From Lingula anatina (taxonomy: Eukaryota > Animalia > Brachiopoda): a DNA stretch of 64,000 nt. The translations under genes and the position numbers were made by a program. Location: the NCBI GenBank assembly GCA_051362555.1, contig CM120640.1, positions 60,366,788 through 60,430,787 of the forward strand, written 5' to 3'. Under the pieces are notes generated by a model. It saw only the letters and a list, made by a program, of their open reading frames with translations. It searched no databases and had not been told where the DNA came from. Of the stretch, positions 37,370 to 56,622 are shown piece by piece. Position 1 is the stretch's first letter, and each line of letters opens with the position of its first letter.

Positions 37370-39569
37370 CGGTAAAGTCTTGAAAATTTCGTCGCTTAAA
37401 AATTAATTAATATTTTTAATTGTGTAAATCCGACTAATTTTTCAAAATTACCTCTCCCCGACTCCTGGGTATGACGAAATTTTCAAAAATCCGGCCTTTG
37501 GGCTTTTATCCTTAGCGACTGTTATCTTTGACCCTCCTATATTGTGGGATATTTAAAACTACTTCCTAAGTCGTTTTCTGGTGGTAAATAATAATAATAT
37601 ATTTATTACTGCATCTCGATTAAGTTAAATTTAACTTACTGTACCCGAAAATGTGTTGAGAATTATCTTCTCGGTAAGAAACATACCTCCTGATAGAGGA
37701 GAAGGATCAAGATAAGCTTAATTGCCTCCTTGCATTATAACCTGGCCGCGACATATTTAAAAAAAATTATGCACTTGGCAACGTTTGTTGCATGCAGGGC
37801 TTTTCCCAGGATTGAATGTCAGGCCTTCTAAAAGTACCATCTGTAACTTCCTAAAAATTTACAGGGAGTTAAAATAATTGCTCCCGCAGACGATCTTCCG
37901 CAATTTAAGTTTCTTGAACTTATATGAAAACTGAACGATCTCCCGATGATGATATGAAAATTGCCTTTTCGTCTCGCTCGGATCGCGAACGATCTCCCTC
38001 TGACGATCTTACGCGAACAAAGTCCTGGCGATATATTACGCAAACGATTCTTCGCTGAAGATACATGTATGCCGTGAGCGGGGAAGGGGGGGGGGTTAAA
38101 GATGAAATTAAAAATATATATTATTTATAATATTCAAAGGGGAGGGGGGATTAAAATAATGATCTCCCGCTGACGATCGTTTGCAAACTAAGTTCCTTGA
38201 ACTAATATGAAAACTGCATTTTATTATTGCTTACATCGCGAACAATCTCCCGACGATGATATGAAAATTGCCTTTACGTCAAGCTAGGATCGCGAACGAT
38301 CTCCCTCTGATATGATCTTACGCGAACAAAGTCCTGAGGATATTACGCGAACGATTCTCCGCCGAATATATACCGTGAGCGGGGGAGGGGGGGCTGTTTA
38401 AAGATAAAATGAAAAAGACATTTTTTAAATCCAAAGTGTGTGTGTCTGGGGTCTGGGGTCTGGGGGGGGGGGGGGAGTGAAATAATGATCTCTCGCTGAC
38501 GATCTTCCGTTAACGAAGTTCCCTAAATCCCTTGAACTAATATAAAAATTGCATTTCATTCTTGCTTACATCGCAAACGATCCCGCGATGATTATCTTAC
38601 GCGAACGATTCTCCGCCGAAGATATGCCATGAGCGGGGAAGGGGGGGGGGTTAAGATAAAATGAAAATATATATATTATTTATTAAATTCAAAGGGGGGG
38701 GTTAGAATAGTGATCTCCCGCTGACGATCTTTTGCAAACTAAGTTCCTTGCACTAATTTGAAAATTGCATTTCATTCTTGCTTACATCGCGAACGATTTC
38801 CCGATGATGACATGAAAATTGCCTTTTCGTCTCGCTCGGATCGCAAACGATCTCCAGCTGATGATCTTACGCGAATGGAGTCTGCTATAAATATGAAAAT
38901 TTTCTTCTCGTCTCGTTTGGATCGCGAACGATCTGTTGACAATATTACGCGAAAGATTCTCTGCTGAAGCTATGAAAATTGCCATCTCGTCCCATTCGCA
39001 TTGCGAACGATCTCCATGGATGAGCCAGGTAATTGTTAAATGGTCCTAAATTGAACATGGACATGAATAGAAGTGACGGGTACATTTCCCTTCGAGATAA
39101 TATCTTGATTTTTCATTGTGTCTTCCTCATTTAGGACAGCCGCCGATAACAATAACGGCGTTACAAATGACAAAGCCGCGGCCTGTGACTTTTATTTGCC
39201 GGCTTGATAACGCACCTTGAGCCAGGTAATAGTAATGAAACTATTTAGACAAAAGGCCGATGTTCCCGCAATTAAGAATGGGGATTCACATCTTAACCAC
39301 TTATATTGTGAGTAACCGCTCGCAGGGGCGCACTATTGTTCCTATCTCCCATTGAGAGTGTTATCGGCAATGATATCCTGATCGTATCATTGTCTTGAAT
39401 CAACTGACGCATTACCTTCATGTTTGAGCTGGACAACGCGGCCATATTTGGTGACGAACTTTTCAAAAATTATTGAGTACCTCATTTTCAAGGTCGACGA
39501 AGTTTTCAAGGGGAAAAAAATTACCTCGGCGGAAAATCGTCTGCCGACGAAATTTTCAAGACTTTACCG
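37370..39569. mobile_element. Non-autonomous pogo-family element (2.2 kb)
   Basis: TIR CGGTAAAGTCTTGAAAATTTCGTCG at both ends, TA target duplication, and the same TIR as 47701-53574. No ORF. Confidence 0.93.
37865..39015. repeat. Complex internal tandem array (~270-bp higher-order units built from CGCGAACGATCTCC sub-motifs and G-tracts)
   Basis: Recurrent GATCGCGAACGATCTCCC, ATGAAAATTGC and GAGCGGGGAAGGGG blocks. Confidence 0.85.
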
Positions 39570-40228: not shown

Positions 40229-41284
40229 ATGGCTGACGTAGACTTGCGTGATATTCGAGCACTTGACAATTTGGACGCAAGAAGACGCCCTGAGCGTCGC
40301 CGACGCATTTTTCGAGCAAGGGTTAATTATTTTGATTTCTACGATGAACAAGATTTCAAAATCAGGTTCAGAATTTCTAAAGAAATAGCACGTGAGGTCA
40401 TAGCACTGATAGAGGATCGATTAGCACCCTTTACATTGAGAAATCGCAGCATTTCACCGGAGCTACAGGTGCTAACCTGTTTGCGATACTATGCAACAGG
40501 TAGCTATCAACGTGCTGCGGGTGATCTGAGCGGGATAAGCGTGGCTTCTGTGAGCAGGATCGTGCCTAGAGTCAGCGAGTCAATAGCATAACTAAAGCCA
40601 AGGTACATTAGGATGCCAGATGCAGAAGAAGCTGACAGAATCAGACAACAGTTCTATCGCGTGGCGCACTTCCCTGGGGTTATCGGGTGTATTGATGGGA
40701 CACATGTCAGAATTGTGTGTCCCAGAGGTATCCAGAATACTGCTAGATACATGAATAGGAAAGGATTTTATTCTTTGAACGTACAGGCAGTGTCCGATGC
40801 GTCTATGATGATAAGAAATGTTGTAACTCGTTGGCCAGGGTCGAGCCACGATAGCACAGTGTTTAGAAACAGTGCACTGGCTGAAAACCTTGCGAGTGGA
40901 AGGATCGGGGGTTTACTCCTGGGTGACAACGGATATGCATGCGAGAGATATCTGCTGACCCCTGTACTGCGACCAGCTACAGATGCAGAGACACAATACA
41001 ACGCTGCCCACAGACGCACAAGAAACATAATAGAGAGGGTATTTGGCGCCCTCAAGAGACGCTTTCCGTGCATCGGCATTGACTCACAGCTCAGGTGTCG
41101 AACAGATACTGCCCAGGCTGTCATCGTTTCTGTGTGTATACTACACAATTTATCACGAATGTGTGGGGATGAAGATTTCATACCTGAGGAAGGTGATGAT
41201 GAAGGCGTCAACATCCCAGTTGCACAAGACGGACAAAGAGGACTGTTATTCAGACGTCTGCTTATTCAGAACCATTTCGCGTAA
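40229..41284 (+). pseudogene. Harbinger (HARBI1-like) DDE transposase with one in-frame TAA at 40589-40591
   Basis: ORFs 40229-40591 and 40613-41284 share a frame. Motifs GCIDGTH, NRKGFYSLNVQ, WPGSSHD, LLGDNGY and IERVFGALKRRF. Confidence 0.93.
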
Positions 41285-41313
41285 TAACATGGAACTATTC
41301 AGCTATTAATAGG

Positions 41314-41344
<31 letters not shown>

Positions 41345-41473
41345 AACGATTCTCACTCTGTAACCAGAATTTATTCTTCAATAATAACACTATCAAGACA
41401 TATCACCTGTTTTGAGTTTTTATTTACAAATCGACAAGCGCACATATATATATATCCGAGTGAGAATCGTTTT

Positions 41474-42632
41474 TCAATTCAGCAAACTCAGTTCTCTTTG
41501 TAGTTTCTTTTCTTTCAATAGGAGAACTCTTTCCTTAATATTCATAATTTCCATTCTCCTGTGATGCTCTCTGCGTCGTAATGTGAGGATTTCGGTCGGT
41601 ACATCATAATTCGAATCCACACGCTGGGAAGCTGAAACAGAATATTTTGATAAATTCAGTAAAAGTGTAAAAAAAGAAATGAGTAGTGCCATCTAAACCA
41701 TCTGAACGTAAGGTTTTTGTATATAGAATTATAAAAGTTACTGTATAGTCATAAAAGTTATTAAAAATCTTGAATCGTTCTATTGTTGAATCTATGCTTG
41801 TCATAGGTCTAAATATGAGATAAGAATATAGTACTTATCAATATTTAAAAAGAGAATGCCTACATCGAGAAGCTTGTCTGTCGCGCCGTGTGCTCGTCCC
41901 CTGGATGGGGCTGTTCTGGCGTGGGGAAGCTTGTCTGTCGCGTTGTGTGCTTGTCCCTGGGACGGGGCTCCTCCGCCGTGGGGAAGCTTGTCTGTCGCGC
42001 TGTGTGCTTGTCCCCTGGATGGGGCTGTTCTGGCGTGGGGAAGCTTGTCTGTCGCGCTGTGTGCTTGTCCCTGGGACGAGGCTCCTCCGCCGTGGGGAAG
42101 CTTGTCTGTCGCGTTGTGTGCTTGTCCCTGGGACAGGGCTCCTCCGGCGTGGAGATGTGTGATGTTGCTGTTCATCGTTTGCCTCCATTGGCGGCGGATC
42201 AACATCGTCTCCGCCAGCTGGCTCAGCTCCCGGTACATCGAGCAGTGCGTCGTCATCGTACGGATTACGCGGAGGGCTATCCACAGCATCATCTCCGATC
42301 ACATCTATCACTGCTTGATTTTCTTGACTTAATTCAACCTCTTTTGGCCCCCCTCCAGTCTTTTTGGCAGCTTTTTTAATATTTGCAAATTCTTTCTTTG
42401 CTTTTATTTTCGCTCGTTTCCAGAAGTCTTTCACCTGCCTTTCAGTTCTTTTCCCGGCTTGTGGAAAATGTGCTGCTAATCTCGTTAGAATTTCTTTCCA
42501 CGCCTCATTTTTTCTTTGATTTGATGTGACATCATTTTTCTTTGATTCAATGATGTTGGACTTCTCCTTTATTAGTTCTGAGATGTATCCCTTCTCTTCA
42601 GCAGAAAAATTCTCCGCTCTCTTTCGGCTCAT
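41474..42632 (-). CDS. Harbinger Myb/SANT-like DNA-binding protein; exons 42632-41864 and 41631-41474
   Basis: RKRAENFSAEEK...AWKEI...QVKDFWKRAK...KTGGGP. A GTAGGC donor and TTTCAG acceptor join in phase to a coiled-coil last exon. Confidence 0.88.
41868..42152. repeat. Coding minisatellite, five 57-bp units
   Basis: CTTGTCTGTCGCG at 41873, 41930, 41987, 42044 and 42101. Confidence 0.95.
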
Positions 42633-45301
42633 TTTCACGTGCTCTTTACTTCTAATTTTTTTCTCATATGAGCTACACAGCTTATCTGCTTCAACGCTAG
42701 CGTGTGTCATCTGTTCATTTACGCCTACCTGATTGACACAGTTCAGTGATTTCTTTGTCTATGTATTCCTGTTACTTTCAACAGGAGGTCAAGTACAAGT
42801 TAAAACTGGTTTAGCTAAACCTGGTTTTTGGCTTTCCTACACTGTTAGTGAAATGCAATTTAGGTCTTGGGTTAGACCAGGTTTTGCTAGACTAGGTTTT
42901 AGCCTTAAACTAGGTTTAGTTAAACCTCCTTTATGAAATCGGCCGATAGTGTCTATCTTATTTAGTTATAATTTTTTAAAATTTTCATCCTTTTCTCATT
43001 ATGATATAGCAGTTGCAGAGGATACACTATTTTATTTTTCATTTTAATGAGATGGAACTACAGAAAAATCACACTGCATTCATATAGGTATATCACACTC
43101 TGCTAGGGGCGCTACAGTAGTAACTATCCAGGGGCAGTGAAGTGCGAAACTGATACCGACCTGCTGACATCTCGCCTATGACACCCCTTTTTTAAATCTC
43201 TCTTTTAGCGCCGCATAAAAAAAAACTAATATAAGCCATTAACTAAATAAGCTGTAAATCAAAGAGTAAAATCCGGTCACGTGATTTTCCTGTGTTGCAG
43301 TCTTTGAGAAGTTTCAGTTCAGGGCGTTTGAAGTTTTGCCTCGACAAAATGCTCAAAAATGTCAGGTAATTACTGGTTGGAATTTTTTGAAATTTATGAT
43401 GAATAAAGCTCATGAAATTTGCAATATTATGTAGAAAAATCATGAAAATTAAACCATGCGAAGTATAGTTAATTTGATGCGCAATATTTATAGTACATGA
43501 TTTGCATGGAAGCCATCCCAGCCATGTGCTTGTGCGGTCGCCAATTTGGGTTTGTTTCCGGGTCATTAGCTTAACATAGAGCCCTAATTGCCCCAATTGG
43601 TCACAAGCAATTTGAGCTGCAGCTACAGCTGAGTGATCACTGCTAGTCAGTGGTCACGGGTCTTTAGCTGAAGAGTGTGGACACTTTTGGTGAAATTTTG
43701 CAGTTAAAAAACTTCAATATCTTTGTTGCTTATAGGAATATTTTAAAAATTCCAAAAGAATTCATCTGTTTTTTGCATTACCTTTCAGAAGATAAAAGTA
43801 TTATAATTTTCTGATCAGTTTGAAAATTTTTCTGATATACCTAACTCATAATATCACCACTGATCTCAGAGGTGTTTAATATTGTAAATCATTTATTTTA
43901 GTGTTTGTAAATCTTTAGTAAAGCCAAAGGTATCATGGTGGGTGGTGTGAGAAAGGAGTGGACAAAGACTAGTGCTTTGTCTGGAAATGAGTAACTAATG
44001 AGGCAACGAATGACAAGGGCTGGCTAGACGTAGTGTCTCAGTGTAAAGTGCCATTCCGTAACAAGTAGAGCAAGTTAGTACAATGAATAACACACTACGC
44101 ACTAGGAGAAAATACACTTCCTTTACAAAAAGGTAATTTTGATCGACATTATATTATATTATATTATATTATATTATATTATATTATATTATTTAAAAAA
44201 TCTATATATAAATATGCATGTATCTTTTTACTTGAAATTCCAAATTATTTTACAGATATAGATATAATTTCTGGAAAATATAAATTGCTATTCACAAGCC
44301 TGGAAACCGTTGAAACCTGGAAACAAGACAAAATTTGCCCTCTTGGAAACAGACATAACAACCATAACTGCCACAGACAACTCTTCAGATGTTAAAGATG
44401 GTATGAGACTGAGTTTAGGCTATCTCATCAAGAAGTACATAAATTTTAATTCACTTAATAAAGAAGTACATAAAAACGCCTTTGATATTTCTGGGCGCTA
44501 AGATTTATTTTGTCAGAAGTGCGGATGCATCAAGCAGTTTTAGTGAAAAGTCATCATCAGATTCTAGGTCAGTAATGGCAGAAGAAACTACTAATAGTGC
44601 TAGTGTTAAAACTGAGCTTGGGCACATCACTGTGAGTGATGATAAACCAGGCAGGATGGGTAAACGCAAGTGGTTGGCTTCCAAAATCTCTAGGATTGGG
44701 GAAAAAACCCTCTTCAGATGACGTACACTATTATCTCACTTCTGGTGTCTCTGTAAGGATACAGTTATGGTTATCATTGTCACATATCACTTGTAAACTT
44801 TAGGAATTCTTGCTTATAGGCATGAGGAGCTTTACAACTCGAAATGGAATAACCTATACTAAATTTTCGCAATTTGAGAAAAAAATCCTTAAATGCTTAA
44901 TAAAATTTGTAAAATGCTAAATAAAATGTGAAAGGAAAAAGTCTTCGTAATATATCCCCTCATAGATCTCATACTCTCTCAGTTATAGTTCACAAACATT
45001 TACAAGGTCAAGGTTGATCGTGTCGACTATTTTTGAATACAATCTAATTATAGCAAGGTCAATTTACCATATTTAGAAATTGACCCATGACACAATGCCT
45101 ATTTTACCCAATAGTGTTGCGCGTGTGATCGATAAGTATTGTAAAGCGTGTTCAGCGTGTGTTATGAATGATCATGGCGGGCGCAGGATCCAGAAAAAAA
45201 TGTCGGAAAGATGTCGGTCCAAGAAGTTTATTTTTCAACAAAGTGCAGAAGGAAATGTGCAACCTTGCCGTGTGGGGGTGGGATAGGACAAAGGCTTACT
45301 T

Positions 45302-45778: not shown

Positions 45779-48174
45779 TGAGAAGACAGTGGGGTGCTTT
45801 TCACAGCACAAACCCCCGGAGACGCCACGTGGAAAATATGGTATGTACCGTGCAATCTTGTTAAAAGTAATCAGTTTTACTGTTGTGCTAATGATAAATG
45901 CATCATATACTTCGTGGGAGAACTCTTAATTTATATTGATTAATTGAAAATAACAACAACAACAACAACAACAAGAAAAATACTACTATCATACATTTCT
46001 TCTTTAGAAAATCTCGAAAATTCCCCCTGCGTTCACGGGTCTTGACCATTTGCAACATTGTATCTTTTCACTTCCCCCTGTCGTGATGAAAAGGCTATCA
46101 TAAACAAAACACTATATTTTATCAGAAAAATGCATTTTTTCGCAAGCATTGCTATTGAAACAGTTGAGCTTTATTTTGACTGTTTTACGATAGGGTCTTA
46201 ATTGATCATGAGTTGTCAGTCAACGGCGCATTACTTTCATGAACTGTCAGTCATCAGCGCATTACTTTGGAGCTTTTAAGAATATTTTGATAGATACATT
46301 GCACCTTTCAATGGCACACATCTCCACGAAAAATACGTTGGATATGTGATTTATATATTTCAAACATATCGTTATATATCTTGAACATTCCCTAGTTGAC
46401 ATATCTGTTACAAATCGTAACAAGCTATTCCATTTACACAACTGAAAAATCAATACTAGAAGGGACCGGTACCTTTGTAGTTTTAACTGGCTAAAACTAG
46501 TCTGTTGTCTAGACGACAAACTGCCTGTCATCAAGTAACTGGTAGTAGATTTAATTGAAAAATCAATAAACTGGCACCAGCCGGCAGCCTACACTCATGT
46601 AAGTTAATTACTGTTGCTGTATTGACTTGGGGCTCAGACAAAACTGAATTTAAGGCTGAAAGTTTAACTCAAGAAGTTTTCATTGCCCTAAAATGATGTC
46701 GCTTTTAAGATTTTAAGTAACAAGTATTATTGTCTAAAGCAGGGATGTTTTTTTTTTTTTTGTGCAAAATATCATTCTTGAGATGGATGCAGATCTGTAA
46801 AAAAAAATATATATGGGGGGGGGGGGGGGGGGGACATACCCACTGACTTTTTCACTTATTGGTAGTCTCACCCCAGCTTAGGCTACTGTTTCTGCCTGCC
46901 ATAAAAGTTATTGCATTTTTTGGTATACTTGGAAAATAAAGTTACTGAAAGATCTCGCCCTTAAGCAATTGTAAATCTTAACTTCTTTGAACTTTGCAGT
47001 ACATAAAAACTAATATTACCCTACTATTTACTTGGCATATTAGTTAATTTATAATACTGCCCCACTGCCATGGCTTTCAATGACATGTCATTTTATAATT
47101 TTTTAATTTCAGTTGACCTGCCAGCTATGAAGTACCAAGGCCCAGGTATGTGGATTGTTCAGTGACACTTGGAAAGTAAACGGCGATTCTCAATTGTTGT
47201 CCCTGTCTGTAAGGGCTTTGTCTTTAGAATCTTCTTGTCTTTAGAATTTCATAATGTCAATATACAGGATTGTTTACACAGTTTTAAATTTTATTGAATT
47301 TTAATTACAAACATGGTTCGCACAAATCTGGAAAATCCTGGAATTTAGATAAAATCCTGGAATATCCTGGAATATGCTTGTGCTCCTTGAATAGTCCTTA
47401 AATCTTTAAAGTAGTGCTGGAGAAATCCTTGAAATTTGAAAATTATTACGTCTATTCGGTAGTTTTCTAGTTAGTCTACGTGAAAGACGCAGAGTAGTAT
47501 TTCGTGTTATTGTGTTTGTTGAGCATCGAGCAATTCGGCTGTTTCCGCGAAGCAGTGATAGAGTCGTTTTAGCCAATCACTGTTGATTTAACATCGACTG
47601 TTCGGCATCGAACACGTGTGGCCCAGCATGCGCACGGTGCGAGACGAGTGGCTCTGTGAATGATTAACCAAGCATGTCAACAACAAAAGGTATTTGTGTA
47701 CGGTAAAGTCTTGAAAATTTCGTCGCTTAAAAATTAATTATTTTTTTAAATTGCGTTCATTCGACGATTTTTTCAAAATTACGCATCCCCGACTTCTGGG
47801 TGTGACGAAATTTTCAAAAACCCCGACTTTCTATCTTACATTCTTATCGGCATTTAGCCTTGTTCCTCTGATATTGTGGGATATTTATCACTACTTCCAA
47901 GGACAATATCTGGTTGTAAATAATTCTTTTTTTTTAGTGTATCTCGATTTTGTTATGTTGACTTACCCGAAAAGAAGGTTGATAATTGTGTTTGCGCTAT
48001 GAAACATAACTCCAGATAGAGGAGAGAGATCAAGATAAGCCCAATTGCAATCTTACATTGCCTGGACCCAGCATATGTTAAACACTATACATTTAAATAG
48101 TAACGTTTAATGCACGCTTATTAAGCGGAGGTCATGGTAAATGAAAACAAACGACGAAATAAAATCAATTTATA

Positions 48175-48560
48175 CGGTTTATTAGGCACATAACTTACTA
48201 ACGCTAATATAGGGCTACTTTGGGTCAAGGCTTTCGTTGATTTTATGTTAATTCAAACAATGCATTAAGACTGGATGAATTCCTACTCTCATAGAGATTA
48301 ATATACTATGAATAAAATTTTGCTCAAAATATTACATTGGCCTTATAACGATTCATCAAATGTTTAAGTTTTATTAAGCACATAACTTACTAACGCTAAT
48401 ATAGGCCTACGTTGGGTCAAGGCTTACGTTGATTTTACGTAAATTCAAACAATGCAATTACAGAGGAGACTGGATGAATTCCTACTCCCATAGAGATTAA
48501 TATACTATGAATAAAATTTTGCTCAAAATATTACATTGGCCTTATAACGATTCATCAAAA
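48175..48560. repeat. Tandem duplication (~195 bp) inside the pogo element
   Basis: GCACATAACTTACTAACGCTAATATAGG...CCTTATAACGATTCATCAAA occurs twice. Confidence 0.9.
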
Positions 48561-48635
48561 GTTTACTTTCATTATGAGATGTCAAGTATCTGTCTCTCAT
48601 TGACTTTTATTTCCCTTATGAAATTGGTGCTTCAG

Positions 48636-50375
48636 TCAAAGATCTCTGAAAGGATCCTCAGTGTCATCTCTCGTGTCGGAGAATCCCAAAAATTCACTCT
48701 CCTCGTCACTGGTAAAAAAATCATCTGGGACATCATTGGTTGGCGAAGTTCTCTCCCCCTTTAGCGCGCTGGTGATCCCAGTGGTTTGAAATGATTTCAC
48801 GACCATTTCGCGACTAACTTTGCTCCAGGCTGACGCCACCCACGCAACAACGTCCTCCTTACTCGCCGTTGGCAATTTATCGAACTTGCCCTTTGCTCCC
48901 ATGGCTGCCTGTCGCATACGCTCCGTCCATGCTTTTCTGAGGTGTACCTTGAATGGTCTATTCAACGACACATCGAGGGGCTGGGCCTTGGATGTACACC
49001 CCCCAGGGATGATGGCCATGGTTGCATTGGCTTTTCGTGTCACCTCCTTCACCTTCTCTGTCGTGTGCGCAGAAAACGCGTCAAGAATCAACAGGGCAGG
49101 TCGTCTGTCCGTGTATGGCCGCAGGATGTGTTTCACCCACTTGATCATGAGGTCCTCGGTCATCCACCCCTTGGGATTCACTTCGACCATCCACCCTGGA
49201 GGACACTCCAGGGATAGCTGACGTGATCCTGAAAAATAGATAACATTAAATTTAATAACTGGTAAAATACGGTGGATATTGCTTTGCTTAGAAATATATT
49301 GTTAATAAATACTTAAACAGTGGTGTACAGTTTACTTATGTACTAACTTGATTAGGTGGTACATTTTACAGAAACTCTATTTATTAATAAATTTTAATAA
49401 AAACTCTTTAATTTAATACAAAACATTTGATACCATCATGGTTTACTACAAAATTTTTTTTTTTTTTTTTTTACCTTTGAAAATTACCATTGATGGTAAT
49501 TTGGCGCCGTCTGCAGCTACCGCCTGCACTACAGTGAAGTGCCTCTTCTCGGCTCCAGTGGTTAAGATGCGGACATCTTTCATTCCTTTTTTGTGTATGG
49601 TCCTCTCGGGCACCAGATCAAAAGTCATAGGAACCTCATCCATGTTGATAATAAATTGGGCGTCGAATTCTTCCTCTTCGTTTATCTCCCCAAGATGAGT
49701 ATAGAACACCTCTAGTCTGTCCTCGAGGTCGCTGGGTAAACGCTGGCTCTCGGTGGTCCTGGCTCTAATAGACAAACGATGTCTTTTTAAGAAGTTTGTA
49801 GCCCACCCCTTGGAAGCGTTGAAGTCAACATCTAATGTTTCTGCCAAAGAGAAAGCATGAGCACACAAGGACTCTACTGTCACTGGCAATTGGAGGTCTC
49901 TCTGCTCCAAGACCCATCTTAAAATGTCCTCCTCGGTGTTATTTCCAAGAAGACATGTTCTCCCGCTGCCTTCCTTCCTGCCTGCATCATTTCTCGGGAC
50001 ATCACGGGCTAGTTCTTTCTTCCACGTGCTGACAGTTGTGCGTGGGATGCCGAGGGATTTTGCTATGGATGTTATTCCATGTAAGGATGCCAGGTCTACC
50101 AACTCTTTTTTCTCGGCCAAGGAATATGATTTATATTTCCCCCGTTTGGCAGGTATGGTGTTGGTGTCAAGTTCAAGATCATCTCGTCTCCGCTTAAGAG
50201 CGACACGCTCCCCAGAGAGCAACGGTGAGTCATCTGGATTCGTAGCAGTCTTCTTCGGCCTACCAACGGGACGTTTGGCAGGTGATCTTGGTAGCGGCTC
50301 CTCCAGCCAACGCCGCGGCACGGTGTCTTCGATGACGGTCGTCTTAGAGAAAAAATCTTTAATGTTGCGCTGCAT
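48636..50375 (-). CDS. pogo transposase, 497 aa; exons 50375-49475 and 49228-48636
   Basis: Open frame across a GT-AG intron. N-terminal QRNIKDFF, AT-hook GRPKK, two HTH domains (FNASKGWATNFLKRH), and catalytic NMDEVP / ILDAFSAH / QPLD with 35 residues between the last two Asp. TATATAA ~45 nt upstream; AATAAA ~25 nt after the stop. Confidence 0.95.
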
Positions 50376-51626
50376 AGTGACAGTGTCTTATGCCTCTCCA
50401 TCTTTTACCCCCTTCTTATATACCCACATGCCAATGACACGTGGCAGCCAGCTTAATCTGAGGTGTAAGAAACAAACCGTATTGATGCTTTTTATCAAAA
50501 GTTTTAATCGCAACGCTGATCAATTAAGCACTGTTATGGGCCGCGTCAGTGATTACTCGGTAACCTGGATAACATTACAGGTAAGACATGCCACGACCAG
50601 CTTAATCTGCTGTGTAATAAACAAGCCGCGTTGATGATTTTTATCGAACATTTTAATCATGACGCTCATCATGTCATGTCAGCCGTTAGTGTTGATAGCA
50701 TCACAGGTAAGTGAGACCATGGCCACTCCCTCGATTTTCGCTGTTATTCGTTTTGGTTGCAAATGCTACAGAATGAATACTGCTGGATAAAAAGTAAATC
50801 AAATCTGTATTATAATTTGGTTGATTGATGACAAAGATCCTTTCGCATATATAAGATGTTGGCTTTTATATTCCCCCTTCCTTGCAAAGACTGCCACTGA
50901 CTTCGCCCTCGTTGCTATGGGATGGGCGACTGAAGTGAAACGCGAGGCGCTCACAGCTTAACGATGCAGACACAAGTCTGACGTAGTGTAAACAGTAAAC
51001 ACATGATAATTAAAGAGTAAATGCAGCTTTTTGACACTTTATTTTTTATTTTCATTTTTCGTGTTATTTGTACCATTACAACATCTTGCATATCGTTAGT
51101 AGTTCTCTGTTAAATTAACGGAATATGTCATCACAACCAGAAACCTGAGATCCTTTACTTATTGTTTATTTTTCTATAAATGGAAATATGCAATAAAATT
51201 TTGTAATTGACCATTCGATATTCTCTCTCTGTCTTTTCTGCTTTTCTATGTATAACACAGTGTGAATAACACAGTTTGAAAGGTTGCTAGCGATGTACAT
51301 GCAGCACAGAATAAAGCATTTAGTATTTAAGCGTTTCTACAGACACATTACATCTTATGTTTTGAATTGTTTGTTATTTAATAAAAACTGGGCTGATTTT
51401 ACACAAGAACCGAATTGGAAGCACTTGCACTGATTGACAAAAGACAAATCTACGAAATGCTGTTCCTTTGGATATGTATGATAAAATCGTACAATCCTGT
51501 CTGAAAGGAATAACTTCCATGTTTCTGACACCCTGTGAAAATGGAAACTAACAATGTTTCACAGACACGTTAGACGAATTTAATTGCTATAGTAATATTA
51601 TACATTTCGTAACATAATGGTATATG

Positions 51627-51666
51627 CTTTTCTGAATGTGTTGTGGCCCTTAAAAGGGCCGTTCAG
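51627..51666 (-). terminator. Histone-type 3' stem-loop (51660-51645) with a purine-rich downstream element (51634-51627)
   Basis: Minus strand reads CTGAAC GGCCCT TTTA AGGGCC ACAAC ACATT CAGAAAAG, starting 46 nt after the HIRAN-like stop codon. Confidence 0.85.
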
Positions 51667-51706
51667 TGACAGTTCACAAGCCCTGTCTGGCTTCTTGTCG
51701 GCCCTG

Positions 51707-52328
51707 CTACCAACACCGTTCAACAGCAGTCAGCAGATCCTTCATCCTCTTCAGAACCTTTTGATTGTCAGAAGAGAATAGTAGGACACAGGGAACTTCC
51801 CGACCACCCTGCCTCAACGTCGACCTTTTGGGGTTGCCGGTTACCTCAACCCGGATGTCGCCACCATGCAGTAGAAAGTGAAAACATTCCCTAGAAATTT
51901 CTTTCGGCAGGTGCCCCACAGTAATGTTCCCTCGCTTTACACGGATGCAATATCGGTCTTTTCGCCGGCCAACTGAAATGGAATGTGAACCAATCATTAT
52001 TAATCTTGTGGCTTATACAGCATCAAACATATTTACCTTAACGTAATTATAAAGGCGAGAACGCATTAAAAAGGAATGACCTGCAAACATAAGAAAAATA
52101 CTAGGTATTTTTTGTGACCAATGTCTGCGTTCGCAACATATGTGCATTTACGTTAACATATGATATTTTAAAGTTATTTCTGCGAAAGTCTTGAAATATA
52201 ATTATAAAATGCAGGTATTACGTACCAGGATCATCTACATCAACAAGGAGAGATTCGCCAACAATAGGTTTCCAGTACACTCTGTAGACGTGGTACCCAC
52301 GAACAACTGCTGCGTACGAAAACTCCAT
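51707..52328 (-). CDS. HIRAN-like domain protein, 122 aa; exons 52328-52226 and 51972-51707
   Basis: Exon 1 MEFSYAAVVRGYHVYRVYWKPIVGESLLVDVDDP (absent from the ORF track) splices via GTACGT...TTTCAG in phase to VGRRKDRYCIRVKRGNITVGHLPKEISRECFHFLLHGGDIRVEVTG...GGREVPC. TATAAAA lies ~30 nt before the ATG. Confidence 0.85.
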
Positions 52329-55300
52329 GATTTGTGTAAATCTTTTCGAATGCACCGTTTTTATACATTCTAGTAATGGTCTTGAAAACATGATCAAAGT
52401 CGCTTAACATACCTGGATTCCAATAGTTATCATAAATCCTATCTATTTACTTGTCTGATACGCAGATCAAAGACAGTTACCTGGTTATTGATCAAGGGCA
52501 TGCTCCGTATGTGAAGCTATTTGACTTTAACTGTTCAGTGTCTGTTAATAAGGTAAAAGCCATACTGCATGTGATCATCAACTTATCGCGATATCTATCT
52601 GCCTATTATTCGTGATTACTGTGTGCCTTTATCTTTTTCTTGTCGCTGTGCTCAAATCCCTGTACATAAGTATAGCACGAAATACTCATATATTTATATG
52701 GGTAGGCTTTACTATTAATTGCTCATTTAAATGTGCTGATTTTTTTATTTGTTTATATCGTTAACGATATAGTTAATGTTTCTATGAATTTTATCTATTA
52801 TTGTACATAAGCGAAAAGGTGTGTATCACTAAAAAATCTAAAATTCGTAGGGCTGCATGTAGCGGTTTACATATGGAGATGCAAACATTAACTATTTGAG
52901 TTTTAAACCGCCGACTTATCATTTATATATTTGTATATATATATATATATATGGTCCCATTTCAAAACAAACTGCATTGATGACCTGTCGAATTAATCTA
53001 CTAGAAGCCCAGCATACCGATTACGCTAGCCGCAAACGAGCTAGGTAATCGTAACAGCTCAATGGACATGAATAGACGCTACGGATGCATTTCCCTTCGA
53101 GATAATATCTTGATCTTTATCATTGTGTCTTCCTCATTTAGCACAACCATCGATAACATTGAAAGCGTCACTACTGACAAAGAGCCGCGGTACATGACTT
53201 TTATTTACCGTCTTCAAGACGCACCTGGTGTAACCGTGTGTATGTGCTAGGTAATAATAGGCCTAATGCCACAAAAGACAAATGCCGTAGCTCCCGCATC
53301 TAGATCTATATCATAAGTAGCCGCCCACATATATTGTTCTTATCTCTTACTGAAAGTGTTATCGGCAATGTTATTCTGACCGTCTTGAATGAACTGACGC
53401 ATGCGTATTACGTTCATGGACAACGCGGCCATGTTGGGTGACGAACTTTTCAAAATTAACGTGAGGGACCATTTTCACGCTCGACGAAATTTTCAAAGGT
53501 AAAAAAATTACGTCGGCGGAAAATCGTCGTCCGACGAAATTCTCAAGAACGACGAAATTTTCAAGACTTTACCGTATTTAACCTTGCGTGGGAACACGAC
53601 CCGGAATTCAAACAGTGGGTGAAACGTGTGCCGAATGACAAGAAAAGAGCTAGCTGTTCAGTTTGCTTCTCTACATTTGATATATCGAACATGGGTGTTT
53701 CTTCACTGAAATCTCATGCTAGAGGTATGAAACACCGCGAAAATATGAGATTGACAAACTTGAATTCCTGTGGACAGTTATCGCTGAGTTCGTTATGGGG
53801 AAATACTATGAAATCACCTGGAAATAGTTGTACTACACTCACGCCTACATGTACCACTACGTCAGCATCAAGCAAGTCTTCATGTACCACAATGTCGGCA
53901 TCAAGCAAGTACGCTACGTTGGACACGTTTGTTTCAAAAGACGATGTTGTCAAAGCAGAGATTCTGTGGACATTGAAATTAATCACAGATCATCAGTCGT
54001 ACAGGTCTTCACAAAACATTGGTGAATTATTAAGGAGGATGGACCCTAACAGCAAGGTTGCACAACAATTCACTTGTGGCGAAAAGAAATCTGCTTACTT
54101 GTGCGTGTTTGGATTGGGGGAATATTTCGCTAGACTCCTGAAAGAAAGTGTAACTGGGCCATTTGTTATTTTGTTTGATGAAAGTCTGAATAAGAAGATG
54201 CAGAAGAAACAGATGGATATACATGTGAGATTTTGGAGTGAGGAGTGCCATAGAGTCGTGACAAGATACTTCACATCTGAATTTCTAGGTAAGTGTCATT
54301 TGAAATTAAACTTTTCCACTCTTAATACAATAATAATGATAATAGTGTATATATATATTAGATGCTAGACTTTATTGTCATAAGGTTAACTTGCCGTAAT
54401 GATGTATTTCAGTGAAAATTTATTAAAAACATGGGGCATATATATATATATATATATGATTTCATAATTATAACAAGATTTAATTATTTAGTCATATTTA
54501 ATCATTTCTGAATAAACAGCTTATATATTTTATTTTATTTTTTCAGGACATGCTACATCAGATGACATGGTCTCACATTTTAGTCAATGTGTTCTCAATA
54601 GTGGTCTACCAATCAAGAACATGTTGCAGATTAGCATGGATGGACCAAATGTGAATTGGAAATTCTATGACACAATATCGAGGAAAGTAGCAAATGACTA
54701 TGGATCCTCTCTCATCAACATCGGGTCATGTGGTTTACATATAGTCCACAACAGTTTTAAAGCAGGAGCAGAGTCCACAGATTGGAATGTAGCATCATGT
54801 CTTTCAGCCCTGTACTACCTGTTCAAAGATTCGCCAGCTAGGGCTGAGGACTATGTCAGAGTGACTGCAAGTAACATCATGCCACTGAAGTTTGTAAAAC
54901 ACAGATGGCTTGAGAATATTCCAGTATGTGACAGAGCTTTACTGATATGGAACAACATAGTATAGTATGTCGAAGCAATCGAATCTAAAAATCTCAAGAT
55001 GCCAACAAACATCTCGTACAAAGTTGTTAGCGAATGTACAAAGGATGAGCTGTTTCTTGCGAAGATGAATTTTTTTAAATCTGTCGCTTTGCAGCTAGAG
55101 CCATTTCTAACTAGGTATCAGACAGACAACCTATGATACCCTATTTGAGTGATGATCTCTGTTCTATCCTAAGATTGCTAATGAAGAGATTCATCAAAGA
55201 TGACGTGATGCAAACAGCAAGAAATCAGGAAAAACTAGTCAGAATTGATGTAACTGACAACAAGATCCACCTGGATTATAATAAAGTGGATTTGGGATTT

Positions 55301-56622
55301 TCAACGGATCGATCTCTAAGCAAGATTAAGAAAGGAGCAGTCAGTGAAAGAGGTTTAATGGAGTTCAGAATGGAGTGCAAGATGTTCCTAGTTACTGTTG
55401 TTGAAAAATTGCTCAAAAAATGTCCTGTGAGTTACAGTTTGGTAAGGTATTTGTCCTGCCTCAATCCTGTCAAAATGTCATCCGATGCAGACAAGGAGAA
55501 GTGTATTTCCAGCTTCAAAAAAGCTCTGTCAATTCTATTAAACCATAAACTTGTGAAAGAGAATGAGTGTGACAGACTTCAACAACAATACTGCTTGTTT
55601 CTAGATGAAATCCCTGTCATAGGATCTGCTGAATTCAAGCAGTATGATTCACAGCATGCCTGCCAAAATGGAATTGATGAATTGATTCACAGAACAATGT
55701 CCACCCCAGATGGCAGATTCAAAGATTTGTTGAAGCTAGTAACACATCTTTTAGTATTGTCTCATGGCCAAGCCTCAGTGGAGAGGGGTTTTAGTGTCAA
55801 CAAAGACGTGGAGGTAGAGAACATGAGAGCTCAAACCCTGGTTGCACAAAGGATTGTCTGTGACCATGTGGCGAAGGTTGGAGGAATATTTGAGGTCAAT
55901 ATCAACAAAGACTTGATACTGTATGCCAAGCAATCAAGGCAGAAATATGAACTGTTTCTCCAAACAGAAAGGGAGAAGAAAAACAGTGAAGAATTACAGA
56001 AAAAGAGAAAGTGCATCTTGGATGAGATTGATGATTTGAAAAAGAAGAAAAAAAGAATCCAGGAAGATATTGACAATTTAACCAAGGCTGCAGACAGTCT
56101 GTTCTTAAAAGCTGAGAAAACTAGGAAAATTTCCTTTGTTACCCAAGCAAACTCCCTTCGCAAGACAGCTGAGGAGAAAAAGAAAGAAATTACTGATATT
56201 GAAAAAGCCTTGGCTTCTTCAGTGGAAAAATTATAAACTTAGTTCAGCAATTCAAGAAGCAAAACAGACTGTTTAACTACATTTTCATAACAGATTAAAC
56301 TGTTATTTTTCAACAGTGCAATATACATCATGAACATTTAGACTCTTTAATGCATGATATATTGATTCATAAGACTAATAAATTCTAGCTGTGCCAAATA
56401 TTCTTGGTTATATTTTTACATATTCATATTGGATGGTTTACAAATAATAATTGTCCAGTGTAACATACTCCTGGAAAAAAAAATTATGTCCTTGAAAACT
56501 CCTGGAAAACTCCTGGAAATTAATTTTATTAAAGCTGGCAGAACCATGTACAAAAATGTTCACTACCAGCCATAGCTGAAAAGCAAGCATTTCCGATGCT
56601 CACAATGTGAGCAAAGGGGGAA

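Follow-up and report, generated by a model that had tools for sequence, protein, structure and literature searches.

A two-gene pogo transposon of Lingula anatina with a HIRAN gene and a histone-type stem-loop: a possible link to replication-time copy gain

Introduction

How cut-and-paste transposons gain copies at replication time, and what purpose the PIP box of pogo transposases serves, are old questions on which a locus of Lingula anatina bears: is a transposon that combines a PIP box on its transposase with a second gene for a HIRAN-like protein, followed by a histone-type stem-loop, coupled to DNA replication? The locus lies within a stretch of 64,000 nt (assembly GCA_051362555.1, contig CM120640.1, positions 60,366,788-60,430,787 of the forward strand), hereafter called the window. 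Both questions are approachable by three small deletions (of the helper gene, the hairpin and the PIP box) in this intact, transcribed element.

Results

The element and its neighbours

The window contains a DD35D pogo element of 5,874 bp (5.87 kb) with two genes. Its boundaries and neighbours are:

37370..39569, plus strand: non-autonomous partner, with TIRs identical to those of the pogo element and TA duplications
47674..56236, plus strand: host element broken by the pogo insertion, with a transposase-like gene
47699..47700: TA target-site duplication, left
47701..47725, plus strand: left terminal inverted repeat (TIR), 25 bp, perfect
53550..53574, minus strand: right TIR, 25 bp, perfect
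53575..53576: TA target-site duplication, right

An earlier note on this DNA had described one TIR/TA-bounded element with two co-oriented genes, and this description holds, both genes being located on the minus strand between perfect repeats with a TA on either side. The insertion splits the transposase-like gene of the host element within codon nine, at a TA; from its motifs we take this gene to be BED-finger/hAT-like, the interrupted element having no Pfam match above threshold. The end regions of the non-autonomous partner are 73-76% identical to those of the pogo element, and no ORF of at least 130 aa was found in it.

The transposase gene

The transposase (497 aa, minus strand, 50375..49475 / 49228..48636) matches the Pfam domains HTH_Tnp_Tc5 (E 9e-9) and DDE_1 (E 5e-23), with 35 residues separating the second catalytic Asp from the third, i.e. 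a DD35D spacing. Its exon 1 also contains what we take to be an AT-hook-like motif.

48167..48574: tandem duplication of ~195 bp, 90% identical, in the 3' region of the gene
48606..48611, minus strand: first AATAAA past the stop
48636..49228, minus strand: exon 2, with the DDE_1 domain and the second and third Asp
49229..49474, minus strand: intron, GT..AG, 246 nt; RNA depth across it 0-0.85
49475..50375, minus strand: exon 1, with the PIP box, HTH domains and first catalytic Asp
50349..50372, minus strand: PIP box QRNIKDFF, residues 2-9 (consensus per PMC5371812)
50416..50422, minus strand: TATA box; stranded reads start in bin 50294-50464

The transposase exons were covered at a mean sense depth of 7.5, 13.1 and 9.5 in the polyA runs X1-X3, and reads continue to ~48100, past further AATAAA hexamers at 48375 and 48183; the transposase message is polyadenylated. 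The exact splice joint is predicted, the reads showing a dip in depth; a poly-T run is located at its donor.

PIP boxes on pogo transposases have been known since 1998 (PMC5371812). The N-terminal PIP box reported for the window transposase is confirmed; when this protein was shuffled 200,000 times, a canonical box no more than 20 aa from one of the two ends arose in just 0.017% of the versions. The canonical motif was present in 2 of 18 database transposases, absent from 47 ORF fragments of related loci (best 80 of 155; see below), and not seen when the transposase of the stem-loop clade described below was inspected by eye.

The second gene and its predicted product

The second gene (ORF2, here the HIRAN gene; 122 aa, minus strand, 52328..52226 / 51972..51707) and its 3' signals comprise:

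51625..51633, minus strand: purine-rich element after the stem-loop, resembling the histone downstream element, with 4/5 bases of the AAAGA core
51645..51660, minus strand: histone-type stem-loop, 6-bp stem, TTTA loop, 46 nt past the HIRAN stop
51707..51972, minus strand: exon 2
51973..52225, minus strand: predicted intron, GT..AG, 253 nt, phase 1
52226..52328, minus strand: exon 1
52359..52365, minus strand: TATA box
52420-52424: reverse CCAAT, upstream of the gene

Each gene has a TATA box of its own, as had been claimed (at -47 for the transposase and -37 for the HIRAN gene). With respect to the introns ascribed to both, that of the transposase gene is supported by the fall in RNA depth, while that of the HIRAN gene is predicted and without reads. 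The predicted splice scored best among four alternatives against two family profiles, and intronless homologues, P0018 among them, align with the spliced 122-aa protein over its full length. ORF2 depth was 0 in X1-X3, and none of eight RNA-seq runs contained an ORF2 transcript; its absence from the polyA data may therefore mean silence.

Fold evidence was obtained from P0018, a full-length homologue modelled with AF2 (pLDDT 93; also searched with Foldseek), and from exon 2 of the window folded alone. The P0018 model has the six-stranded barrel and two helices of the HLTF HIRAN, which it matches with Z 11.6 (rmsd 2.8, 109 residues), followed by lp_0118 (Z 10.3), Rad5 (Z 8.6) and a next unrelated structure at 5.2. 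HLTF also ranks first for exon 2, at a middling Z of 6.3 over 75 residues. Pfam PF08797 matches 83 of 99 homologues at E<=0.05, three of the related loci (L003, L017, L032) exceed its cut-off, and exon 2 itself gives E 0.22. These models indicate that the second protein is a HIRAN-family domain, so that the proposed HIRAN fold was not refuted.

The position of HLTF Y72 is presumably occupied by Val; at that of Y93 the window protein has Lys and most family members His or Glu, Tyr being present in 9 of 229 homologues, and the tyrosine clamp (Y72/Y93) is thus not retained in this HIRAN family. The exon 2 match superposes Asp40 of the window on HLTF D94, a 3'-OH-binding residue (PMC5773155); among 150 homologues the equivalent Asp is conserved in 91% and the next His in 98%. 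The earlier note had cautioned that the N-x-x-D motif is altered. The Asn is indeed replaced, and its loss as a sign of a decayed copy was considered and rejected: since the replacement loop is common to 10 close homologues, Asn loss is a subfamily trait rather than copy damage. The loop of the window protein also differs from that of its own subfamily.

Linkage, co-descent and selection

A metagenome scan confirmed 155 related HIRAN loci, of which the best 80, in 32 families, were used; linkage was counted in one direction, from the HIRAN side only. Within these best 80 of 155 loci, a pogo-like transposase lies 206-820 bp from the HIRAN gene in 20/32 families, against a background of 1.5% of 4,203 positions, so that the absence of the ORF from relatives is not borne out. 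Where both flanks reach at least 1.5 kb, eight of nine families (same 80 of 155 loci) have such a transposase, the ninth being a HIRAN-only element bounded by TIRs. Eighteen linked transposases comprise 13 with DD35D, four in which the triad is not covered and one that reads 37 across a break.

Tree distances of HIRAN and transposase are correlated (rho 0.36, reached by 3/5000 permutations; 19 taxa from the best 80 of 155 loci), and this co-phylogeny spans two deep transposase clades. Neutral evolution of the HIRAN gene does not fit its dN/dS, which is 0.07-0.25 in 11 pairs of diverged loci without saturation (best 80 of 155 loci), comparisons of ORF2 of the window with these loci being saturated; the gene is under purifying selection. 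Linkage, gene trees that track each other and purifying selection therefore mark the pairing of HIRAN with a pogo transposase as a two-gene design of long standing rather than a chance acquisition.

Exon 2 gave no match in a word-indexed protein search, single-sequence searches of PDB, PHROG and plasmids returned nothing, viral contigs contained no relative of either gene, and prokaryote genome contigs no transposase relative. One HIRAN remnant was present in the prokaryote contigs, within animal-like DNA (L082).

The histone-type stem-loop

The stem-loop behind the second gene scores 36.1 bits against Rfam Histone3 (RF00032; gathering score 34) and is the sole gathering-level Rfam match in the 64-kb window; in a shuffle control of the stem-loop pattern 2/100 shuffles reached one match. 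It recurs in C2, C3 and C14, three further families of one clade, at 18-57 nt beyond the stop of the HIRAN gene; their proteins are ~40% identical to the HIRAN protein of the window, and their HIRAN genes each match uninterrupted, i.e. intronless. Across 1.33 Mb, 14 of 16 motif matches follow a HIRAN match at 34-70 nt, on its sense strand, and the gathering score was reached at five loci (best 80 of 155). The earlier claim of a histone stem-loop is thus strengthened by its recurrence in a distant clade. Window and clade agree in spacing and in having AAAG downstream; of the AAAGA core, which would pair with the U7 box UCUUU, the final base is missing in the elements of the window (where the fifth base is C), C3 and C14.

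Stem covariation was not significant (97/500 shuffles), and the tree neither groups nor rejects grouping the stem-loop clade with the HIRAN gene of the window (p-AU 0.09). A stem-loop pattern match in a viral contig (L081) was dropped, as it lies inside an unrelated long ORF. The notion of PIP box, HIRAN and stem-loop as a fixed package fails: the stem-loop occurs in 3/30 families with enough flank (best 80 of 155 loci), in whose transposases no canonical PIP box was seen, and most HIRAN families have no stem-loop, many having AATAAA instead.

Discussion

Comparison with known systems

The DDE_1 and HTH_Tnp_Tc5-type binding domains, short TIRs and TA duplication place the element in the pogo superfamily. 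It resembles the Passer family of that superfamily (DD35D, one ORF, 1.6-4.0 kb; Gao et al. 2020, PMC7386202; Wang et al. 2023, PMC9976928) in its triad, TIRs below 30 bp, TA duplication, HTH_Tnp_Tc5 and transposase of 400-500 aa, and differs in its 5.87 kb, its introns and its second, non-transposase gene. Passer transposases have BrkDBD plus HTH_Tnp_Tc5 or HTH_Tnp_Tc5 alone, and here only the latter passes the cut-off. Because of its two genes and 5,874 bp the element is filed, by comparison of descriptions, as a Passer-like variant rather than a typical member. In Drosophila pogo, human Tigger and Arabidopsis Lemi1 the PIP box is C-terminal. A canonical PIP box is shared by these three and the Lingula transposase (PMC5371812); in the latter it is N-terminal, and the former are described without an accessory gene. 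ITm elements with extra genes are also comparable, but their cargo consists of Fanzor, nucleases or methyltransferases, and HIRAN was not found in the main text of the paper on them.

The window protein shares its fold with HLTF/Rad5 and with stand-alone bacterial HIRAN proteins (PF08797; PDB 4XZG, 3K2Y, 6L8O), and its family keeps the D94-equivalent Asp and the following Gly-His; unlike HLTF, it is stand-alone, transposon-borne, without the tyrosine clamp and with the Asn of N-x-x-D replaced, and relatives are sometimes fused to an Ulp1 protease. Likewise, its 3' end resembles that of histone messages (RF00032, SLBP, U7 snRNP) in a stem-loop above gathering score near the stop, AC-rich flanks and a purine-rich element ~12 nt downstream, yet the gene does not encode a histone, has a predicted intron and is followed by an imperfect downstream core, whereas the stem-loop messages of metazoan histones lack introns (PMC13525598) and are, according to two sources (PMC5054213; PMC6303110), the only ones processed by this pathway.

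Among the literature matches listed (excluding Repbase, subscription journals and supplements), no description was found of HIRAN in transposons, including pogo, mariner and Tc1, or of a histone stem-loop on a transposon or on a message from any other non-histone gene; nor was a HIRAN-type second ORF found for pogo/L31 among the matches listed, the supplements of PMC7386202 and PMC9976928 excluded. The element challenges two descriptions, that of pogo as transposase-only and that of histone messages as the sole animal mRNAs with a stem-loop end. If the takeover of the histone 3'-end pathway considered below is true, that pathway would produce a protein-coding message other than a histone's, and a two-gene pogo class, widespread and with helper-only satellites of its own, would have been overlooked; a helper governing donor-site repair could be of use in transposon vectors such as Passer.

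A candidate mechanism and its alternatives

We infer from sequence, with good reason, that the pogo element may be coupled to replication; this earlier proposal gains from the HIRAN fold, co-inheritance, selection and the recurring stem-loop, and loses the idea of a fixed package. Our main reading, to which we assign a probability of roughly 45%, is a two-gene DD35D pogo element with a long co-inherited HIRAN gene, in which an S-phase hairpin and 3'-end binding would lead to copy gain. As the HIRAN gene ends in a histone-type hairpin, which would limit its message to S phase, the helper would likely be made only during DNA copying. Excision of ITm elements leaves 2-3-nt 3' overhangs. The cavity of the HLTF HIRAN accommodates a dinucleotide (PMC4666394), and this domain binds the 3' ends of primers (PMC5773155). 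The window protein is predicted to bind the short overhangs that excision leaves in the donor or, alternatively, nascent 3' ends at replication forks, where the PIP box would recruit the transposase. On donor ends it would slow end-joining and thereby favour repair from the sister chromatid, by which a cut-and-paste jump would become a net extra copy. Processing by SLBP/U7, timing to S phase, binding of 3'-OH ends and an influence on copy gain are all putative steps, and the broader view that animal DNA transposons took over the histone 3'-end pathway (SLBP/U7) to make an S-phase HIRAN helper for replication-coupled copy gain is put forward tentatively, at somewhat less than even chances.

The same proteins could instead select targets, HIRAN on nascent 3' ends and the PIP box directing insertion to replicating DNA in parallel to TnsE of Tn7 with the sliding clamp. 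Primer-end binding by HLTF, the significance of the window PIP box against shuffles, a PIP-box-like DI-x-x-MF motif in three HIRAN tails of clade C16/C25 and the clamp-guided targeting known for Tn7 and IS elements (PMC5371812) agree with this, but the distribution of the canonical PIP box over linked transposases is patchy and the transposase already chooses a TA target; we regard it as unlikely. The case for a decoy, in which stand-alone HIRAN competes with HLTF/Rad5 or reverses SUMO-based silencing with the hairpin as S-phase timer, draws on the Ulp1-type SUMO protease fused to some relatives (Peptidase_C48 in 4/99 homologues), such HIRAN-Ulp1 genes adjoining pogo transposases at L017 and L078, on the persistence of HIRAN-only TIR elements and on the reported restriction of HIV-1 by HLTF (PMC6511057). 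It is rather improbable, given that the window protein has no protease domain and that no evidence for a restriction of DNA transposons by HLTF was found.

A small chance is likewise given to a true HIRAN helper whose hairpin is uncut by U7, the message being spliced and polyadenylated and the hairpin binding SLBP only (for export, translation or storage, e.g. in oocytes) or being a histone-gene relic. Consistent with this are the predicted intron, the imperfect downstream element, C14 copies with broken stems, polyA-type hexamers beyond the stem-loop at 51584, 51382 and 51170, and, in X2 and X3, a small number of sense reads at 51149-51490. Against it, ORF2 has no polyA-selected reads where the neighbouring transposase is expressed, spacing and downstream AAAG are shared with a distant clade, and the HIRAN genes of that clade are intronless, with neither AATAAA nor ATTAAA found within 250 nt. 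In human cells, Passer elements with a single ORF show efficient transposition (PMC9976928), and the helper is therefore not needed for transposition as such. That activity and a varying gene orientation (10 convergent, 9 divergent, 1 tandem; best 80 of 155 loci) would suit a HIRAN gene and hairpin that are captured host pieces without a role in transposition; this very improbable reading is largely refuted by the purifying selection, by the co-phylogeny in two deep transposase clades and by 1,011 clusters at 50% identity.

The two-gene pogo element

The element lies in animal-like, transposon-rich DNA and measures 5,874 bp between its repeat ends; its boundaries and a shorter relative are:

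Window 47701-47725 and 53550-53574: perfect inverted repeat pair of 25 bp, with TA beside each
Window 37370-39569: non-autonomous element of 2.2 kb, with terminal inverted repeats (TIRs) identical to those of the pogo element and TA duplications

The description in the earlier note of a TIR/TA-bounded element with two intact genes was confirmed; open reading frames in both genes, together with flawless TIRs, are consistent with a young insertion. The element inserted at a TA within codon nine of a different transposase-like gene (window 47674-56236), which we take to be a BED-finger/hAT-like transposase and which, besides the pogo insertion, contains a stop near 54963. The end regions of the shorter element are 73-76% identical to the pogo element, its interior being packed with internal repeats of ~280 bp. 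RNA reads cross both TIRs outward into several distinct flanks, and the TIR family is therefore dispersed. The window also holds a Harbinger-type pair (40592-42758), being a DDE_Tnp_4 transposase and a convergent Myb/SANT protein.

The transposase comprises 497 aa after removal of one GT..AG intron; its domains are HTH_Tnp_Tc5 and DDE_1, and its catalytic triad is DD35D. The PIP box (a clamp-binding motif) previously claimed for it is canonical and occupies residues 2-9; of 200,000 shuffles of the transposase, 0.017% placed the motif no more than 20 aa from an end and 0.34% had it at any position. The closest relative (P0001) has a PIP box in the same place and another database transposase (P0010) has two; a canonical PIP box is absent from the remaining 16 of 18, several of which have reduced aromatic N-termini. 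PIP boxes are already known on pogo, Tigger and Lemi1 transposases, where their role is treated as unresolved (PMC5371812).

Three stranded polyA runs labelled as this species show transcription of the transposase gene running from ~50400 down to 48100, the intron being visible as a dip in read depth; because of a few fixed differences from the window sequence, the reads may stem from a sister copy or allele. Upstream of the transposase, 50448-50671 and 50849-51197 contain two 75-bp direct repeats and, on the plus strand, a TATA box, a 14-codon ORF, AATAAA and trace reads, perhaps reflecting a small antisense transcript between the two pogo genes.

Judged by its catalytic triad, TIRs, target duplication and domains, the element is Passer-like, but it departs from the single-ORF description (PMC7386202, PMC7325037). 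Giant-virus multi-gene Mariner elements carry other cargo (PMC3627910). In the open-access literature (excluding Repbase, subscription journals and supplements), no account was found of HIRAN in pogo elements or of histone stem-loops in transposon genes. Both the two-gene pogo design and the predicted histone-type 3' end of the HIRAN gene are well supported.

The second gene is a HIRAN gene

Structural modelling identifies the second gene as HIRAN, in agreement with the earlier proposal. Exon 2 alone gives a weak Pfam HIRAN match (E 0.22), and a homologue search with it retrieved 1,011 clusters at 50% identity; among 99 aligned homologues, Pfam HIRAN was detected in 83 (E<=0.05) and the Ulp1 protease family in 4. 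A PDB search with the family profile returned HLTF HIRAN as the sole credible matches (E 0.004). The fold evidence concerns a full-length homologue (P0018) and window exon 2 alone, separately from the spliced 122-aa protein: the AF2 model of P0018 (pLDDT 93) matches HLTF HIRAN with Z 11.6 and rmsd 2.8 over 109 residues, followed by lp_0118, a stand-alone bacterial HIRAN, and Rad5, the following match scoring 5.2, while the exon 2 model again ranks HLTF first (Z 6.3), with Asp40 superposing on D94. The predicted splice ranked top of four alternatives by two-profile scoring, and along its full length the spliced protein aligns with a subfamily whose genes lack introns.

In HLTF, D94 recognises the 3'-OH, and a clamp formed by Y72 and Y93 grips two bases (PMC5773155, PMC4666394). 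The D94-equivalent Asp is kept in 91% of 150 family homologues, and the Gly-His is also conserved; the tyrosine clamp is not kept (Tyr at the Y93 position in 9 of 229). The Asn of N-x-x-D, kept in 83% of the family, is indeed replaced here, as had been cautioned; its loss as a sign of decay was rejected because the replacement is common to the window's subfamily, although the window loop departs from the consensus of that subfamily.

HIRAN genes are old partners of pogo transposases

One metagenome scan confirmed 155 loci, of which the best 80 were analyzed; these group into 32 families at 85% nucleotide identity. Among these, 20 have a pogo-like transposase 206-820 bp from HIRAN, against a background of 65 in 4,203 positions with a transposase within 1.2 kb; the counts run in one direction, from HIRAN to transposase. 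The 12 families without a linked transposase all have a flank below 2 kb. Where both flanks reach at least 1.5 kb (n=9), eight families have a transposase, the ninth being an 864-bp TIR element with HIRAN as its only gene. Both genes lie inside TIRs with TA in families C4, C5, C9 and C30. The two genes converge in 10 families, diverge in 9 and stand in tandem in 1; in the window their arrangement is tandem. The linked transposases (n=18) form two deep clades; 13 have the DD35D triad, 4 were uncovered at it and 1 has a spacing of 37 over a break. Groups recur between the HIRAN and transposase trees, whose distances correlate at 0.36 (3/5000 permutations, 19 taxa). For 11 diverged, unsaturated pairs dN/dS was 0.07-0.25; near-identical copies gave noisy values (0-3.2), and pairs including the window were saturated. 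The association of HIRAN with pogo transposases is an old one.

TIR elements with the HIRAN gene alone or a remnant (L036:371-1385, L079:6271-7270, L055:1586-2449, L082:9879-10431) are read as helper-only satellites; the C14 members among them are multi-copy and have the stem-loop. A long C-terminal extension is fused to HIRAN at L017:770-1852, at L078:3-1031 and in family C9, and is Ulp1/SUMO-protease-like in L017 and L078; these genes converge on a DD35D transposase belonging to the second of the deep clades. A transposase (P0005) and a HIRAN protein (P0183), both close to the window's and from the same source (longest contig 4,857 bp), may belong to one element.

A recurrent histone-type stem-loop

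Against Rfam Histone3 (gathering score 34) the claimed histone stem-loop reaches 36.1 bits, the sole gathering-level match within the window. A loose motif (at least 5 pairs) gave 16 matches in related loci (1.33 Mb, both strands), 14 of them closely following a HIRAN gene, in its sense orientation, and 2 elsewhere in L010. Those 14, from families C2, C3 and C14, start 18-57 nt past the stop (46 in the window); 5 loci reach the gathering score and 5 fall below, scores that exclude three unlisted broken-stem loci and the unscanned L004. The HIRAN proteins of these families are ~40% identical to the window's, and the transposases of C2 and C3 ~31% where measured. Compared with the window stem, the recurrent stems show one two-sided change, the other changes being wobbles; 95.8% of alignment cells pair, and covariation is not significant (eight rows, 97/500 shuffles). 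Window and families share a downstream AAAG, without the final A of AAAGA except by wobble in C2; AAAGA pairs with the universal UCUUU of U7 (PMC5054213). The stem-loop is real and recurrent.

The HIRAN genes of C2, C3 and C14 form one clade (support 100/97), which the window gene neither joins nor is excluded from (p-AU 0.09). The hairpin thus appears to be present in two lineages. The other 27 families have no hairpin, and many have AATAAA. One stem-loop in L010 stands apart:

L010:8585, plus strand: canonical histone-type stem-loop with a complete GAAAGA element, not part of the pogo element

It ends a gene with exons at L010:7000-8625 (+), presumably DEDDh-type exonuclease-like, which may be a second case of a non-histone gene that has an intron and yet a histone-type 3' end.

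In the polyA runs the HIRAN ORF has zero sense reads, the transposase exons there having a mean depth of 7.5-13.1; this would be expected from a non-polyadenylated message, but also from a silent gene. Neither gene was seen in three further runs whose RNA selection is unspecified, and the few reads from two oligo-dT runs are mostly diverged. Past the hairpin (51149-51490), a few sense reads lie close to polyA-type hexamers. An intron is unusual in a stem-loop message (PMC13525598); the window HIRAN gene has a predicted one, and those of C2, C3 and C14 have none.

A possible role in donor-site repair

Beyond the architecture, every step of the following is what we consider most likely. The transposase would excise the element from the donor site. 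When ITm elements excise, the donor ends are left with 3' overhangs of 2-3 nt. The HIRAN pocket accommodates a 3'-terminal dinucleotide (PMC4666394). An S-phase-limited helper would encounter donor breaks while the sister chromatid exists and, by capping the donor ends, would delay end-joining; repair would then tend to use the sister as template and restore the donor copy. In the window's lineage, the PIP box would carry the transposase to replicating DNA.

Alternatively, the HIRAN protein may serve in fork targeting, or may act as a decoy, anti-HLTF or anti-SUMO; the hairpin, for its part, may remain uncleaved and bind SLBP. Passer elements with a single ORF and no helper are active (PMC9976928). 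The three replication cues of the earlier note do not form a fixed set: no canonical PIP box was seen in the stem-loop clade.

The HIRAN C-termini of L038, L043 and L057 carry the motif DI-x-x-MF, which looks like a PIP box lacking its Gln, as if a clamp-binding motif could sit on either partner, transposase or HIRAN.
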